From assembly GCF_055900595.2 (NCBI RefSeq), contig NZ_CM148325.1: DNA of 64,000 nt; one strand, 5' to 3'. A program made the translations under genes and the position numbers. Numbering within the stretch: position 1 is the stretch's first letter; every line of letters starts with the position of its first letter. The notes beneath the pieces were generated by a model. The model was not told the DNA's origin. It saw nothing but the letters and a program-made list of their open reading frames with translations, and searched no databases. Of the stretch, positions 3,646 to 63,136 are shown piece by piece.

Positions 3646-4358
3646 GCGCCTGTAAGGCTCTGTTACCAGCCGCGCCCTAACAGGCGCATACGATCTGACA
3701 TTTGCATTCAACTTCGTTACTTACGGCCCGTAAACGGGCTGCCCGGATATGGAATCGATAACTGCTCCCCCATTTTATCCTCTTCAAGCTGGTGCTTTAT
3801 GTAGTCCTGTATCTTCGCCGTGTTCTTACCCACCGTATCGACATAGTACCCTCGGCACCAGAACTCCCTGTTTCTGTATTTGAATTTCAAATCCCCAAAC
3901 TGCTCGTAAAGCATCAGACTGCTTTTCCCTTTCAGATATCCCATAAAGCCGGATACGCTCATTTTGGGTGGGATTTCCACAAGCATATGGATATGATCTG
4001 CGCAGCACTCTGCTTCCAGAATCCGTACGCTTTTCCACTCACACAGCTTTCTCAAAATACTGCCTATCGCCCTACGCTTCTCTCCGTAAAACGCCAGTCT
4101 TCGGTATTTCGGCGCAAAAACTATGTGATATTTACAGTTCCAGCGGGTGTGCGCTAAGCTCTTTTCGTCCCCCATTGGGACCCCCTTTTGATTTCTTGTT
4201 TGACACTTGCAGTTGCCAGACCGCAAGGTGTTTTAACAAATCAAAAGGGGTTTTAATAACTGGCTCAAAGCTGAAAGCTTTCCGGAACCCCCAGCCTAGC
4301 TGGGGGTTTTCTGTGCACAAGAAAAAAGGCCCGCAAGCGGACCTTTTATAAGGGTGGG
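3646..4358 (-). mobile_element. IS200-type insertion sequence (IS200/IS605 family, tnpA only); boundaries approximate (about +/-40 bp)
   Basis: Intact Y1/HuH transposase ORF, stem-loop sequestering its ribosome-binding site (around 4180..4240), perfect palindrome AACCCCCAGCCTAGCTGGGGGTT at 4284..4306, imperfect hairpins near both ends. The fabF-pabC gap is 830 bp here versus roughly 120 bp as I recall for K-12. Confidence 0.75.
3717..4175 (-). CDS. tnpA: IS200 transposase TnpA (Y1 HuH single-strand transposase)
   Basis: 152 aa from MGDEKSLAHTRWNCKYHIVFAPKYRR, with HIHMLVEIPP HuH motif and catalytic-Tyr region; ORF track begins 17 codons upstream. Confidence 0.9.
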   Translation of the reverse strand: MGDEKSLAHTRWNCKYHIVFAPKYRRLAFYGEKRRAIGSILRKLCEWKSVRILEAECCADHIHMLVEIPPKMSVSGFMGYLKGKSSLMLYEQFGDLKFKYRNREFWCRGYYVDTVGKNTAKIQDYIKHQLEEDKMGEQLSIPYPGSPFTGRK

Positions 4359-10767: not shown

Positions 10768-10953
10768 TTAACTTTGTAACGTCATAGAGTCAAAGAAAAA
10801 GGCAGCCTGTGGTTGCCTTTTGCCAATAATTCGCACACATTGCGGGTTACTGCTTTATTTTCGTTCAGTGCTGATAACGAACATCAACCTGCAAAACGAA
10901 GCGCATAGTTTAAAATGGCTATCATCAATACGCTATATCTGTTGGAAAAAAAT

Positions 10954-11538
10954 ATGCCTAAACTTATTTTAGCCTCCACCTCGCCCTGGCGTCGCGCTCT
11001 TCTGGAAAAACTGCAAATCTCTTTTGAATGTGCAGCACCCGAGGTCGACGAAACCCCACGCAGTGACGAATCACCGCGACAGTTGGTGCTTCGACTGGCG
11101 CAGGAAAAAGCGCAATCTCTGGCGTCACGTTATCCGGATCATTTAATTATTGGTTCAGACCAGGTATGTGTTCTTGATGGCGAAATCACCGGTAAACCGT
11201 TAACGGAAGAAAATGCCCGTCTGCAATTACGCAAAGCCAGCGGCAATATCGTCACCTTCTATACTGGCCTGGCGTTGTTTAATTCGGCGAATGGGCATCT
11301 GCAAACAGAAGTGGAGCCTTTTGACGTCCATTTCCGTCACCTGAGCGAGGCGGAGATTGATAATTACGTGCGTAAGGAGCATCCCCTGCACTGTGCGGGT
11401 AGCTTTAAGAGTGAAGGATTTGGCATTACGCTGTTTGAGCGTTTAGAAGGGCGTGACCCTAACACGCTGGTTGGTTTACCGCTAATCGCGCTGTGTCAGA
11501 TGTTACGTCGGGAAGGGAAAAATCCGCTGATGGGATAG
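10954..11538 (+). CDS. yceF: Maf-like nucleotide pyrophosphatase YceF
   Basis: ORF track 10915..11538 trimmed to [14 protein letters not shown] (194 aa). Confidence 0.9.
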
Positions 11539-12819: not shown

Positions 12820-13181
12820 CGTTTCCGTGTCCATCCTTGTTAAAACAAGAAATTTTACGGAATAACCCATTTTGCCCGACCGATCATCCACGCAGCAATG
12901 GCGTAAGACGTATTGATCTTTCAGGCAGTTAGCGGGCTGCGGGTTGCAGTCCTTACCGGTAGATGGAAATATTTCTGGAGAGTAATACCCAGTCTGTTTC
13001 TTTGATAATTGCGCTGTTTTTCCGCATGAAAAACGGGCAACCGACACTCTGCGCCTCTTTGAGCTGACGATAACCGTGAGGTTGGCGACGCGACTAGACA
13101 CGAGGCCATCGGTTCACACCCGGAAAGGCGTTACTTTGCCCGCAGCTTAGTCGTCAATGTAAGAATAATGAGTAAGTTACG
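12820..13181 (+). promoter_or_regulatory. rne promoter and long structured 5' leader (RNase E autoregulation); extent approximate
   Basis: 572-bp divergent rluC/rne spacer; leader length of about 360 nt is from established knowledge of rne, not measured here. Confidence 0.5.
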
Positions 13182-34877: not shown

Positions 34878-34928
34878 TTATCCTTTGTGTCCGGCAAAAA
34901 CATCCCTTCAGCCGGAGCATAGAGATTA

Positions 34929-52634: not shown

Positions 52635-53090
52635 TTAGTACTGATGAGCGGTCGCGTTGTTACCAAAGCCAACCTGAGTGACGTTAACGCTGGAGTTAGA
52701 TGCAGTCTGGTCAACAGCAGCACCGTTACCGCCACCGAACTGTTTAACAGTCATAGTAGAATCTTTACCATTCCACTGATCAAGAGTGGCGCTGTTACCG
52801 AAGCCACGCTGAGTCAGATCGATTGAGCTGTCATCTGAGCCCTGACCAACATCTGCACCGTTACCACCGCCATGCTGGGTAATAGTCAAGTCAGAGTTAC
52901 GGGCATCAGTTTGCAGAGCAAGTGCAGAGTTACCGCCACCGTACTGGTAAATGTTCAGCTCTGAATTTGGGCCGCTATTATTACCGCCACCACCGTGGTT
53001 ACCGCCGCCGCCGTACTGAGGAACAACACCTGCCAGAGCGCTACCAGAGAATACGATTGCTGCAATTGCTGCTACTTTTAAAAGTTTCAT
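52635..53090 (-). CDS. csgA: major curlin subunit
   Basis: 151 aa, five imperfect S-x5-Q-x-G-x-G-N-x-A-x3-Q amyloid repeats. Confidence 0.97.
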   Translation of the reverse strand: MKLLKVAAIAAIVFSGSALAGVVPQYGGGGNHGGGGNNSGPNSELNIYQYGGGNSALALQTDARNSDLTITQHGGGNGADVGQGSDDSSIDLTQRGFGNSATLDQWNGKDSTMTVKQFGGGNGAAVDQTASNSSVNVTQVGFGNNATAHQY

Positions 53091-53130
53091 GTAAAACCCC
53101 CATCGGATTGATTTAAAAGTCGAATGGAAA

Positions 53131-53586
53131 TTAACGTTGTGTCACGCGAATAGCCATTTGCGACTGTCTCTGCACTACAATTGCCGTTTTTTGAGTACCA
53201 TACTGTGTAATATTTGCTTTATTACCAGAACCTTTCTGGATAATCATCGCAGTATTACCATAAGCACCTTGCGAAATACTGGCATCGTTGGCATTGCCCG
53301 CCTGATCAATATATGCAAGGTTATAATCTCCTGTCTGGTCAATCTTTGCCCGGTTGCTACTACCTTCTTGCGCAACAACCGCCAAAAGTTTTGAGCCTCC
53401 CTGCCGTAACTGAGCACTATTATTAGTCCCAGCTTGACCAATTATGGCTGCCTGATTAAATGAAGACTTACTCAATTCATTTACCGCGAAGTTATATTCT
53501 GAATTAGCTAAATCATAACCTGCTGCGGCTGCAATCCCAGGCGCACCCAGTATTGTTAACATCATAAATAACAATTTGTTTTTCAT
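53131..53586 (-). CDS. csgB: minor curlin / nucleator
   Basis: ORF track trimmed to MKNKLLFMMLTILGAPGIAAA (151 aa). Confidence 0.95.
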   Translation of the reverse strand: MKNKLLFMMLTILGAPGIAAAAGYDLANSEYNFAVNELSKSSFNQAAIIGQAGTNNSAQLRQGGSKLLAVVAQEGSSNRAKIDQTGDYNLAYIDQAGNANDASISQGAYGNTAMIIQKGSGNKANITQYGTQKTAIVVQRQSQMAIRVTQR

Positions 53587-54340
53587 GTTGTCACCCTGGA
53601 CCTGGTCGTACATTTAAGAAATTAAATCATTTCAACTTGGTTGTTAACGCAACCTGTATTTTGTTAACGCCGCGTTACGATGGAAAGTATGTCTGCGGAA
53701 ATATTTTTAATAACTCACCTGCGCGTTGTATTTTTCTTTTTTTGTTCATACCAAAGTATTAAAACCCACGTAAATACGCTGTTATCTACGCAAAAAAATA
53801 TTTTGTTTTCTTTTAAATTTCGGTTTTCCGCAATCAAAAATCACCAGACAGTCATTCTTCTTGCCCGTCGCTGATTGCTGCGATATGTCTTGCGCACAAG
53901 CCGTGACAAACCTCGTCTTTTTGCAGTAAAAAATTGTCCACGGAGGTGTGGAGAAAAAACAAGAACGTTTTACATGACGAAAGGACTACACCGAAATATT
54001 TTTTATATGCATTATTAGCAAGTTAGCACCATTTGTATGATTTTTTAAAATTGTGCAAGAAAAACCAAATGTACAACTTTTCTATCATTTCTAAACTTAA
54101 TAAAACCTTAAGATTAACATTTTAATATAACGAGTTACATTTAGTTACATGTTTAACACTTGATTTAAGATTTGTAATGGCTAGATTGAAATCAGATGTA
54201 ATCCATTAGTTTTATATTTTACCCATTTAGGGCTGATTTATTACTACACACAGCAGTGCAACATCTGTCAGTACTTCTGGTGCTTCTATTTTAGAGGCAG
54301 CTGTCAGGTGTGCGATCAATAAAAAAAGCGGGGTTTCATC
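53587..54340. promoter_or_regulatory. csgBAC / csgDEFG divergent control region
   Basis: 754-bp AT-rich non-coding spacer between divergent csgB and csgD starts; multifactor regulation is established knowledge, sites not resolved here. Confidence 0.8.
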
Positions 54341-54991
<651 letters not shown>

Positions 54992-54995
54992 AGCC

Positions 54996-55385
54996 ATGAA
55001 ACGTTATTTACGCTGGATTGTGGCGGCAGAATTCCTGTTCGCCGCAGGGAATCTTCACGCCGTTGAGGTAGAAGTCCCGGGCTTGTTAACTGACCATACT
55101 GTTTCATCAATTGGCCATGATTTTTACCGAGCCTTTAGTGATAAATGGGAAAGTGACTATACGGGTAACTTAACGATTAATGAAAGGCCCAGTGCACGAT
55201 GGGGAAGTTGGATCACAATAACGGTCAATCAGGACGTTATTTTCCAGACTTTTTTATTCCCGTTGAAAAGAGACTTCGAAAAAACTGTCGTCTTTGCACT
55301 GATTCAAACTGAAGAAGCACTAAATCGTCGCCAGATAAATCAGGCGTTATTGAGTACGGGCGATTTGGCGCATGATGAATTCTAA
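54996..55385 (+). CDS. csgE: curli secretion specificity factor
   Basis: 129 aa. Confidence 0.95.
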
Positions 55386-55409
55386 ATAAAAAATTGTTCG
55401 GAGGCTGCA

Positions 55410-55826
55410 ATGCGTGTCAAACATGCAGTAGTTCTACTCATGCTTATTTCGCCTTTAAGTTGGGCTGGAACCATGACTTTCCAGTTCCGTAATCCAAACT
55501 TTGGTGGCAACCCAAATAATGGCGCTTTTTTATTAAATAGCGCCCAGGCACAGAACTCGTATAAAGATCCGAGCTATAACGATGACTTTGGTATTGAAAC
55601 GCCATCAGCGTTAGATAACTTTACCCAGGCCATCCAGTCACAAATTTTAGGTGGGCTACTGTCGAATATTAATACCGGTAAACCGGGCCGCATGGTGACC
55701 AACGATTATATTGTCGATATCGCTAACCGCGATGGTCAATTGCAGTTGAATGTGACGGATCGCAAAACCGGACAAACCTCGACCATCCAGGTTTCGGGTT
55801 TACAAAATAACTCAACCGATTTTTAA
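55410..55826 (+). CDS. csgF: curli assembly protein
   Basis: 138 aa. Confidence 0.95.
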
Positions 55827-55852
55827 GCCCCAGCTTCATAAGGAAAATAATC

Positions 55853-56686
55853 ATGCAGCGCTTATTTCTTTTGGTTGCCGTCATGTTACTGAGCGGATGC
55901 TTAACCGCCCCGCCTAAAGAAGCCGCCAGACCGACATTAATGCCTCGTGCTCAGAGCTACAAAGATTTGACCCATCTGCCAGCGCCGACGGGTAAGATCT
56001 TTGTTTCGGTATACAACATTCAGGACGAAACCGGGCAATTTAAACCCTACCCGGCAAGTAACTTCTCCACTGCTGTTCCGCAAAGCGCCACGGCAATGCT
56101 CGTCACGGCATTAAAAGATTCTCGCTGGTTTATACCGCTGGAGCGCCAGGGCTTACAAAACCTGCTTAACGAGCGCAAGATTATTCGTGCGGCACAAGAA
56201 AACGGCACGGTTGCCATTAATAACCGAATCCCGCTGCAATCTTTAACGGCGGCAAATATCATGGTTGAAGGTTCGATTATCGGTTATGAAAGCAACGTTA
56301 AATCGGGCGGTGTTGGTGCAAGATATTTTGGGATCGGTGCCGACACGCAATACCAGCTCGATCAGATTGCCGTGAACCTGCGTGTCGTCAATGTGAGTAC
56401 CGGTGAGATCCTCTCCTCGGTGAACACCAGTAAGACGATACTTTCCTATGAAGTTCAGGCGGGGGTCTTCCGCTTTATTGACTACCAGCGCTTACTGGAA
56501 GGGGAAGTAGGTTACACCTCGAACGAACCCGTTATGCTGTGCCTGATGTCGGCTATCGAAACAGGCGTCATTTTCCTGATTAATGATGGTATCGACCGCG
56601 GTCTTTGGGATTTGCAGAACAAAGCAGAACGGCAGAATGACATTCTGGTGAAATACCGCCATATGTCGGTTCCACCGGAATCCTGA
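55853..56686 (+). CDS. csgG: curli secretion channel lipoprotein
   Basis: 277 aa, lipobox LLSGC. Confidence 0.96.
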   Translation: MQRLFLLVAVMLLSGCLTAPPKEAARPTLMPRAQSYKDLTHLPAPTGKIFVSVYNIQDETGQFKPYPASNFSTAVPQSATAMLVTALKDSRWFIPLERQGLQNLLNERKIIRAAQENGTVAINNRIPLQSLTAANIMVEGSIIGYESNVKSGGVGARYFGIGADTQYQLDQIAVNLRVVNVSTGEILSSVNTSKTILSYEVQAGVFRFIDYQRLLEGEVGYTSNEPVMLCLMSAIETGVIFLINDGIDRGLWDLQNKAERQNDILVKYRHMSVPPES

Positions 56687-58658: not shown

Positions 58659-58715
58659 AACTCTCTCCTGTATTCAATTCCCGCCAAGGATAGCAGGAAA
58701 CCTGATGCTTTATTA

Positions 58716-59159
<444 letters not shown>

Positions 59160-59183
59160 TTATCAAAATCATTAAGTTAAGGT

Positions 59184-59244
59184 AGATACACATCTTGTCA
59201 TATGATCAAATGGTTTCGCCAAAAATCAATAATCAGACAACAAA

Positions 59245-59252
<8 letters not shown>
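59184..59252 (-). ncRNA. IS10 RNA-OUT antisense RNA (position inferred from canonical IS10 layout)
   Basis: Canonical IS10 places pOUT transcription from about nt 115 outward to about nt 47; mapped onto this copy by offset from the outside end. Confidence 0.5.
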
Positions 59253-61028
<1,776 letters not shown>

Positions 61029-61222: not shown

Positions 61223-61310
61223 GGTGAGGTGTCCGAGTGGCTGAAGGAGCACGCCTGGAAAGTGTGTATACGGCAACGTATCGGGGGTTCGAATCCCCCC
61301 CTCACCGCCA
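61223..61310 (+). tRNA. serX: tRNA-Ser (anticodon GGA)
   Basis: GGTGAGGTGTCCGAGTGGCTGAAGGAGCACGCCTGGAAAGTGTGTATACGGCAACGTATCGGGGGTTCGAATCCCCCCCTCACCGCCA: class II tRNA with long variable arm and encoded CCA; hairpin plus T-run terminator follows. Confidence 0.9.
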
Positions 61311-61413: not shown

Positions 61414-62781
61414 TCAATCATCATCCTTGCAGTTGATAAGAATTTCTGCCTCTTTTACAACTATCTTATTACGTCCGGTTTCTTTCGCTTCATATAGTGC
61501 ATTATCAGCCATTCGATAGATTTCATTCGGATTTAACGCACTTCCCTGAGTCACCACAGCGCCAATGCTAATCGTCACTTTTTGCGGTATGGCGTATTCA
61601 GGATTATCGCCTGTCAAACGCTCTACATTTGCCCTTATCCTTTCGGCTAAAACTTTCGCGCTTTCAGTATCGGTCTCCGTCAGCAAGACGCCAAACTCTT
61701 CGCCGCCAACGCGTGCTAAAAGGTCATTTGGTCGTATGCTTTTCCCAATGATGCTCACCACTGTTTTTATCACCTGATCGCCAACCGGATGCCCCCACGT
61801 ATCGTTAACTTTTTTAAAGTGATCGATATCCATAATCATGACACAATAAGACGTTTTTTGGGCTGATGCTGATTGAGCCTTCAGTTCATTGAAAAAATAA
61901 TTCCTGTTAAATATATTAGTTAATGGATCGCGATGGGCAATGTTCTTTGTTACTCGTAGCGCACTGAAAATATGGCACATAAATATTACCATAACGGTTA
62001 ATTTACTGACTACTTCAATAGTGCGGCTAATATACCAAGTGGACACACTATACCTGCTCATAAATAACAGAGAGATATTATACAGCACGGCACAGAAAGC
62101 AATCACTGATACTCCATTCCAGATATCACAGCGTAAACCATTAAAGTATAGATTAACCAAAAGCAAGATTAACCACATGAAAATCATTATGGTAACATAT
62201 GAGGTTTTCCAGACTACCTGACCATTTTCATTTGTTAACTCGGCAATATGTAAACTGTAGTCATCATAATGACTACTTAGCATGTGAGCAACTGCCGCCC
62301 CCCCAAAAATAAAAAATAGGCTTATACACAATGTCATTTTTTTGGAAAAAAAACAGCGTTTCTTATTGTTTTCACTAACTTTATTCACCAGCGCTAGCAA
62401 TATTAACATGCACAAACTCATCTGACGAAACAAATAATAAATTGCAATATCATTTTGTACAACGCTGCTTATCAAATGCCCCTCAATAAATTGCTGAATG
62501 ATAATGGCAGTTTTAACAAAGTAAATCAAACAACTCAGAAACGCTAAACTAAGTATACAGTTTGAAAATTGCACACGATCATAAATGAAATACAATTGCA
62601 TGAAAATAAATGCAACGGTATCGATAAAAAATAAAGCAATCATAACCATTAGATAGGTTGATCGTGGAACAACCTCCTCAACGGTTGGCTGATTAAACCA
62701 ACTATTTACCAAAACGAATGCAAGCCCAAACAATAAGCTCACCAATACAGTACTACTAATTCCCAAATAGTCTTTTTCCAT
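61414..62781 (-). CDS. dgcT: membrane-anchored diguanylate cyclase (GGDEF/GGEEF domain)
   Basis: Polytopic N-terminal domain plus C-terminal GGDEF domain with RVGGEEFGVLL active site; start set at MEKDYLGISSTVL (ORF track begins 30 codons upstream). Confidence 0.88.
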   Translation of the reverse strand: MEKDYLGISSTVLVSLLFGLAFVLVNSWFNQPTVEEVVPRSTYLMVMIALFFIDTVAFIFMQLYFIYDRVQFSNCILSLAFLSCLIYFVKTAIIIQQFIEGHLISSVVQNDIAIYYLFRQMSLCMLILLALVNKVSENNKKRCFFSKKMTLCISLFFIFGGAAVAHMLSSHYDDYSLHIAELTNENGQVVWKTSYVTIMIFMWLILLLVNLYFNGLRCDIWNGVSVIAFCAVLYNISLLFMSRYSVSTWYISRTIEVVSKLTVMVIFMCHIFSALRVTKNIAHRDPLTNIFNRNYFFNELKAQSASAQKTSYCVMIMDIDHFKKVNDTWGHPVGDQVIKTVVSIIGKSIRPNDLLARVGGEEFGVLLTETDTESAKVLAERIRANVERLTGDNPEYAIPQKVTISIGAVVTQGSALNPNEIYRMADNALYEAKETGRNKIVVKEAEILINCKDDD

Positions 62782-63136
62782 AAAGCTACACCAATCTGTA
62801 GGTTGTAGATCCCTTTCTGTCACTAATAGATATAAGAACTGTACTGTTGTCAATATAAAAATCCACCACAAACAATACCAATGATGATAGTTGCAGACCG
62901 CAATTATTATTGCCTTAGTGCTTTATACATTCTTCGCGACAAGACAGGCTTGCAAATACATATAAATGGTTATAAGGAAATCCTTATAAAACATTAATTC
63001 ATAGATATATTAGGAATAACAATTGAATCCGTGAGTACAGTAACACTGCATTTCATCAGGACTTTCGAAAAATCCGATATCATGCATCGGAATTTACTGA
63101 TTTAATTATTTTAATCCTAATTTATTTTGAAAAAGG

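Follow-up and report, generated by a model that had tools for sequence, protein, structure and literature searches.

The spacer between csgB and csgD decides curli fibre production and biofilm entry in E. coli, and natural single-base variants of this region can switch behaviour in Salmonella and E. coli. The question raised here was whether the copy carried by a 64,000-nucleotide stretch of DNA (the window; NCBI RefSeq assembly GCF_055900595.2, contig NZ_CM148325.1) is an ordinary, intact curli control region, and what its base differences from the reference copy of E. coli K-12 MG1655 are likely to mean.

The csgB-csgD spacer and its setting

The open reading frame positions and translations placed the csgB-csgD intergenic gap at window positions 53587-54340 (754 bp), exactly where the original prediction had described a large control region between these two genes. 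The spacer is flanked on the left by csgB, encoding the curli nucleator subunit (53131-53586, minus strand, ATG at 53586, protein start MKNKLL), and on the right by csgD, encoding the biofilm master regulator (54341-54991, plus strand, ATG at 54341). The mechanical csgB open reading frame extends 27 nt upstream of the annotated MKNKLL start. The csgD-csgB spacer of K-12 MG1655 is equally 754 bp long (NC_000913.3, positions 1103197-1103950). The gene order, csgC-csgA-csgB on one arm and csgD-csgE-csgF-csgG on the divergent arm, matches that of K-12, as do the neighbours of the cluster (ymdA, ymdB, and clsC on one side, and ycdZ and ycdY on the other). CsgB is identical to its K-12 counterpart at 150 of 151 residues (S98N), and CsgD at 214 of 216 residues (99%; S19P and S110A). 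Both E. coli AST85 and Z0117EC0005 encode the same CsgB and the same CsgD (CsgD, WP_000481500.1). CsgA (gene at 52635-53090) differs from that of K-12 by N110D and E112T; it is identical in AST85, and CsgA of Z0117EC0005 differs from it at residue 67.

The GC content of the spacer was 34.5% compared with 50.0% for the 64-kb window, and an equally low value was found in only 2% of 754-bp windows. The earlier description of the region as AT-rich is thus accurate, yet the lowest GC content of any 754-bp stretch lies elsewhere, at approximately 62305-63058 (32.2%, below that of the curli spacer). This other stretch lies at the 5' end of a dgcT-like GGDEF gene and in the 589-bp gap that separates this gene from pgaA. 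Intergenic gaps were measured using the PGAP annotation of the near-identical AST85, which was transferred over the syntenic 64 kb. On this transferred annotation, the 754-bp spacer was the largest intergenic gap, as had been proposed, followed by gaps of 589 bp (between pgaA and the GGDEF gene), 572 bp (rne-rluC), and 393 bp (mdoC-mdoG). No annotated feature lay under the spacer in the 61 genomes listed or in the annotations of K-12, Z0117EC0005, and AST85. We also considered a hidden small gene in the spacer and rejected it; the mechanical open reading frames of 40-64 amino acids are unannotated in all genomes listed.

On each testable feature, with a one-base deviation beside the CsgD-box core as the exception, the region belongs to a known kind and is nothing new. 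We are confident that it represents the canonical divergent csgDEFG/csgBAC curli control region of Escherichia coli in an intact copy.

Promoter elements, the csgD leader, and substitutions relative to K-12

The spacer aligned with that of K-12 MG1655 over 754 columns with 0 gaps and 11 mismatches (98.5% identity). Alignment to K-12, which the original prediction had proposed as a check for indels and substitutions, therefore revealed no indels but 11 substitutions, so that the region and the reference differ. Relative to the csgD P1 start, the substitutions are located at 54113 (-80), 54059 (-134), 54026 (-167), 54019 (-174), 53841 (-352), 53832 (-361), 53822 (-371), 53819 (-374), 53743 (-450), 53720 (-473), and 53671 (-522). 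Two blocks are identical to K-12, namely alignment columns 1-227 (the leader and the promoter up to -79) and columns 671-754 (the 84 nt adjoining the csgB ATG). Accordingly, the 311 nt comprising the leader, the core promoters, and the csgB-proximal 84 nt contained no substitution, in comparison with 11 in the central 443 nt. In this alignment, the leader, the -10 hexamers of csgD and csgB, the OmpR box, and the 84 nt adjoining the csgB ATG showed no change relative to K-12. The K-12 copy thus shares with the window its flanking genes, the 754-bp length, the 148-nt leader, both -10 hexamers, and the OmpR box, and differs from it at 11 single bases. Known rdar-constitutive or loss-of-function mutations near -44/-47 or in the -10/-35 spacer were looked for and are absent; the sequence from -79 to +148 is that of K-12.

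The csgD transcription start was placed at 54193 on the basis of a published +67 primer (PMC12388358) and a 148-nt untranslated region (PMC4152358). The resulting 148-nt csgD 5' leader (54193-54340, plus strand) is 100% identical to that of K-12. Folding of 54193-54360 predicted two stem-loops, at -84 to -27 and -10 to +16 from the AUG (z score of the minimum free energy, -1.96), which coincide with the published SL1 and SL2 (PMC4152358). The csgD leader is targeted by the small RNAs OmrA/B, McaS, RprA, GcvB, and RydC via Hfq (PMC4152358). Since the leader has the K-12 sequence, the sites of small-RNA pairing and the Shine-Dalgarno region are predicted to match those of K-12.

A match to the Rfam family ES056 (RF02752) was found at 54194-54285 on the plus strand, scoring 119.7 bits (gathering score, 43) and covering model positions 1-92 of 92. 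This match corresponds to leader nucleotides +2 to +93, with its first base one off the inferred csgD start. An experimentally mapped transcription start site adjoins the 5' end of ES056 (PMC4676190, Table 3); because the Rfam coordinate is 54194 and the inferred csgD start is 54193, this mapped site corresponds to the csgD start. ES056 could alternatively be an independent small RNA gene and more than just the 5'-terminal part of the csgD mRNA. Such a gene would accord with the existence of an Rfam family, with a window match far above the gathering score, and with the detection of a 92-nt transcript by RNA-seq (PMC4676190), yet the element begins one base from the inferred csgD start and lies wholly within the leader, and the novel transcripts of the source paper were reported without predicted Rho-independent terminators (PMC4676190). 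The element is more simply explained as a fragment of the leader or as a csgD transcript that terminated prematurely, and RprA-linked premature termination has been discussed (PMC4152358). We consider an independent gene very improbable. By its sequence and position, then, ES056 is the 5' part of the csgD leader in the window as in K-12, and the full-length 92-nt Rfam model corresponds to the 5' portion of the leader in both. Together with the colinearity with K-12 and the SL1/SL2 fold, this match agrees with the earlier view of the region as the known curli regulatory spacer with its csgD leader.

Upstream of the start, the csgD P1 -10 hexamer, TAGATT, was assigned to 54182-54187 (plus strand) from its distance to the start and is the same as in K-12. 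The sequence GTTACATTTAGTTACATGTT at 54134-54153 (plus strand; -59 to -40, centred at -49.5) is identical to K-12 and is presumably the OmpR box attributed to Prigent-Combaret et al. 2001. Farther upstream, the palindrome AAAATTGTGCA-(12 nt)-TGTACAACTTT occupies 54047-54080 (plus strand; -146 to -113 of csgD P1), and both half sites (54047-54057 and 54070-54080) are intact. Its motif and coordinates are presumably those of the MlrA site attributed to Ogasawara 2010a. The substitution at 54059 (-134) falls on base 2 of the 12-nt spacer between the half sites, where K-12 has T and the window has G in the csgD sense (A to C in the opposite sense). In the literature, a 33-bp palindrome sits between the IHF and OmpR sites (review, PMC3913822). 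The published footprints on the csgD promoter extend from -201 to +28 for H-NS and from -192 to -20 for RcdA, and all four csgD-proximal substitutions fall within these spans; the pair at 54019 (-174) and 54026 (-167) lies within the H-NS-protected region.

On the csgB side, the -10 hexamer CATACT was inferred at 53686-53691 (minus strand), with the start inferred near 53679, and has the K-12 sequence. The proposed CsgD box in the csgB promoter (53709-53721, minus strand) reads C-A-GGTGAGTTATT in the csgB sense, and C-G-GGTGAGTTATT in K-12. The G-to-A substitution at 53720, at approximately -41 from the inferred csgB start, turns CGGGTGAGTTA into CAGGTGAGTTA in the csgB sense; the core GGTGAGTTATT is intact, and the base directly upstream of it is A where G is usual. 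This base would be position 2 of the 11-bp CsgD motif CGGGKGAKNKA, a motif attributed to Brombacher 2003 and Zakikhany 2010. The putative assignments of the OmpR, MlrA, and CsgD sites are backed by matching coordinates, two reviews, and cross-genus conservation. CsgD is described as binding an 11-bp site at the csgBAC promoter (review). The earlier note had also called for inspection of the known operator sites; two rare substitutions fall at recognised activator sites, one in the spacer of the MlrA palindrome and one at the edge of the CsgD box, and the OmpR box is unchanged.

A further rare substitution, at 53671 (A in K-12 and G in the window, csgB sense), lies approximately 9 nt downstream of the inferred csgB start and just upstream of GCGTTAACAA repeats. 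The distal GCGTTAACAA repeat forms the hairpin GGTTGCGTTAACAACC, which was flagged at 53639-53654 by a terminator scan. In Escherichia sp. MOD1-EC7003, a 20-bp deletion has occurred between two direct GCGTTAACAA repeats, leaving a spacer of 733 bp; the deletion lies between the csgB start and its ATG and corresponds to approximately 53642-53670 of the window. A generic sigma-70 promoter scan of 53500-54400 returned two sites compared with 3.2 expected from shuffled sequences, neither of which is a real csg promoter; the scan is uninformative here because the csg promoters depend on sigma-S and activators.

The substituted positions were compared with those of related genera. A search of genome contigs with a degenerate pattern of the csgB N-terminus yielded six loci, of which one (L021) had too little upstream DNA, and the set is suited to a small phylogenetic footprint and not to statistics. 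The taxa were E. albertii, another Escherichia species, S. enterica subsp. diarizonae, and three Citrobacter. In the csgB-proximal alignment of Escherichia, Salmonella, and Citrobacter, the core GGTGAGTTATT, the -10 hexamer CATACT, and CATCGTAACG were invariant. Position 53720 lies at the edge of this conserved block, outside the invariant core; the base is G in five of the six other taxa (K-12, the second Escherichia species, Salmonella, and two Citrobacter), the E. albertii type strain has T, and variation extends to the bases upstream. Position 53671 varies between genera, with G in E. albertii and C. koseri. As for the MlrA palindrome, the csgD-proximal half site is invariant across genera, and Salmonella and C. 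koseri depart from the others in the distal half site; the 12-nt spacer of the palindrome differs in each genus, though at the position substituted in the window every other taxon compared has A. Approximately 15 of the 20 positions of the OmpR box are invariant across genera, and its upstream end varies. The rare substitutions are therefore located at or among genus-variable positions beside invariant cores, which argues that they are tolerated polymorphisms.

The csgD-csgB (agfD-agfB) spacer of Salmonella enterica has the same divergent layout, with a length of 755 bp (PMC6611641) or 760 bp in S. diarizonae. The CsgD-box core, the csgB -10 hexamer, one MlrA half site, most of the OmpR box, and the central stem of the leader are shared as invariant or nearly invariant blocks. 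In contrast, the sequence is heavily diverged outside these blocks, and the start-proximal part of the leader differs. The effects of RcsB and H-NS have been reported to be opposite in the genera Escherichia and Salmonella (PMC12388358).

Distribution of the haplotype among complete genomes and other features of the window

The spacer had matches in 5,371 of 5,426 complete E. coli genomes, and in 5,329 of the 5,426, at least 80% of the region was matched at an identity of at least 95%. At least 99% identity to the window allele was observed in 31 genomes. The exact window haplotype was absent from the 5,426 complete genomes, the best match being 99.9%. This value (753 of 754 bases) was reached by each of the eight nearest genomes, AST85, Z0117EC0005, E200086, E400634, E500002, E600003, 100117, and 100248. 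In AST85 and Z0117EC0005, which were compared base by base, the sole difference is at 54128 (-65), where both have C and the window has T, the common base and that of K-12. A private mutation in the strain was considered and rejected; each window base matches either K-12 or the nearest genomes, in line with the original statement that nothing in the region appears strain-novel.

The alleles at the 11 substituted positions were tabulated in 19 spacers sampled across the identity ranking. In this sample, four to five of the 11 positions have the commoner allele in the window and the minority one in K-12. The window base at 54113 (-80) was present in 11 of the 19 haplotypes, and that at 54019 in 7 of the 19; at 54026, the window base is the majority allele and that of K-12 the minority one. 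The window base is likewise the common allele, with K-12 carrying the minority one, at 53743 (alignment column 598). Among the four central substitutions at 53819, 53822, 53832, and 53841 (-374 to -352 from csgD P1), the alleles at 53819 and 53822 were found only in the group with at least 99% identity, and those at 53832 and 53841 are common in E. coli.

The frequencies of the rare alleles were determined as exact-match counts with queries of 61-63 nt. The A allele of 53720 at the edge of the CsgD box was found in 8 of 5,347 genomes, the allele of 54059 in the MlrA spacer in 17 of 5,322, and that of 53671 in 13 of 5,358. The eight nearest genomes share all three of these rare alleles with the window. 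A genome announcement (PMC13064198) covers six of the eight carriers of 53720 A, which are eatA-encoding paediatric isolates from GEMS, and lists five of these six (100117, 200086, 400634, 500002, and 600003) as ST485, OND:H45, and phylogroup 'Cryptic I' or 'Cryptic'. The window most likely comes from an ST485-like lineage of cryptic clade I. The rare alleles are lineage markers and are not unique to the window strain, and the 11 substitutions apparently make up a rare lineage haplotype, the cryptic clade I/ST485 allele.

Several other variants of the spacer were observed in the same survey. A total of 55 of the 5,426 complete genomes had no spacer match and approximately 40 more matched over less than 80%, with S1-CAM-01-A retaining 61 bp only; the curli control region is thus deleted or disrupted in about 1-2% of complete E. 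coli genomes. Seventeen records matched at just 80-90% identity, and these are probably other cryptic clades labelled E. coli. Strain 47538 (NZ_CM135149.1), a urine isolate, has a 10-bp deletion in the csgD OmpR box (-43 to -52), which judging from its position is likely to be a natural loss-of-curli allele.

Elsewhere in the window, a complete IS10 of 1,329 bp (59138-60466) lies within ghrA (ycdW), approximately 4.8 kb from the spacer, and splits this gene into fragments at 58713-59129 and 60432-61028. It is bordered by a 9-bp target-site duplication, CGCCAGGCC, at 59129-59137 and 60467-60475, and contains a 402-amino-acid transposase open reading frame (59245-60453) and an Rfam RNA-OUT match (59183-59252). 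Unlike the window, the nearest complete genomes apparently lack IS10 in ghrA, because a 25-kb query aligned with them over only 95% and the shortfall matches the size of the element. Further Rfam matches above the gathering score were to STnc490, SraB, the rne 5' UTR element, the PyrC leader, and a tRNA (4185-4308, 10792-10960, 12821-13157, 34879-34928, and 61223-61307, respectively), all of which are expected for this chromosomal region. A tRNA-Ser is annotated at the syntenic AST85 locus of the tRNA match.

Expected effect of the substitutions and divergence along the csg genes

The 754-bp AT-rich spacer would accommodate two back-to-back promoters that depend on sigma-S and activator proteins. 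According to the literature, csgD P1 would be transcribed mainly by sigma-S RNA polymerase. The published binders of the csgD promoter region are OmpR, MlrA, IHF, RstA, CpxR, H-NS, RcsB, and RcdA. Activation of csgD requires OmpR, MlrA, and IHF. H-NS and CpxR are reported to act as cooperative repressors, and RcsB to repress from -31 to +53 (PMC12388358). The 148-nt leader would then receive post-transcriptional repression by Hfq-dependent small RNAs, and CsgD would bind the box overlapping the csgB -35 region and thereby switch csgBAC on. All elements of this mechanism are present by sequence and are the same as in K-12 save for the two bases at the CsgD-box edge and in the MlrA spacer. The window copy is expected to work like the K-12 copy with unchanged expression, and the 11 substitutions are most likely to be neutral or nearly so. 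With the region intact and its leader and core promoters matching the reference, no new biology is implied, and the value of this copy is as a catalogue of rare-lineage alleles.

The lineage substitutions might instead be cis-regulatory variants that alter curli output, with 53720 G to A as the main candidate and 54059 A to C as the second, acting for instance by weakening the activation of csgBAC by CsgD or by altering the MlrA-dependent induction of csgD. Both alleles are scarce, as the 8 genomes with 53720 A and the 17 with the MlrA-spacer allele indicate, and 53720 changes position 2 of the presumed CsgD motif, at a base that is G in K-12, the second Escherichia species, Salmonella, and two Citrobacter. 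There are also precedents: single-base changes at -44, -47, -80, and -189 alter csgD promoter activity in Salmonella, and in uropathogenic E. coli, rdar phenotypes have been linked in a preprint to polymorphisms of the spacer at OmpR, IHF, and CsgD sites. However, E. albertii has T at 53720, the adjacent upstream bases vary, and the position is outside the core GGTGAGTTATT; similarly, the MlrA spacer varies across genera, in contrast to a csgD-proximal half site that is invariant and a distal one that is largely conserved. An altered curli output is therefore an unlikely consequence of these substitutions. Slightly less likely still is the specific case in which 53720 A, perhaps with 54059, would weaken or retune CsgD-dependent csgBAC activation and confer a heritably different curli and biofilm setting on the lineage. 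If this were true, a human-gut lineage that includes eatA-positive isolates would have its own curli and biofilm setting. Near-neutrality of the substitutions thus remains our preferred reading.

The divergence from K-12 is uneven along the csg genes. The spacer diverges by 1.5%, compared with 5.1% at the third codon positions of the flanking genes. Third-position divergence was 0% in csgB and 1.8% in csgD, in comparison with 10.5% in csgA and 6-10% in csgE, csgF, and csgG; the overall values over 52635-56686 followed the same order, with 1 of 456 nt in csgB, 0.9% in csgD, 4.6% in csgA, and 2.3-3.4% in csgE, csgF, and csgG. This pattern suggests recombination boundaries near csgA/csgB and csgD/csgE, or an unusually strong constraint on the intervening sequence. 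Sharp boundaries of this kind are typical of recombination mosaics, and recent recombination with mainstream E. coli, rather than purifying selection on the operators, might account for the low divergence of the csgB-spacer-csgD block. On the other hand, the absence of substitutions from the 311 nt of leader, core promoters, and csgB-proximal sequence, against 11 in the other 443 nt, fits constraint. We regard recombination as the sole cause as possible but rather doubtful. Constraint and recombination are not mutually exclusive and both are plausible, and the identity of the region as the canonical curli control region is unaffected either way.
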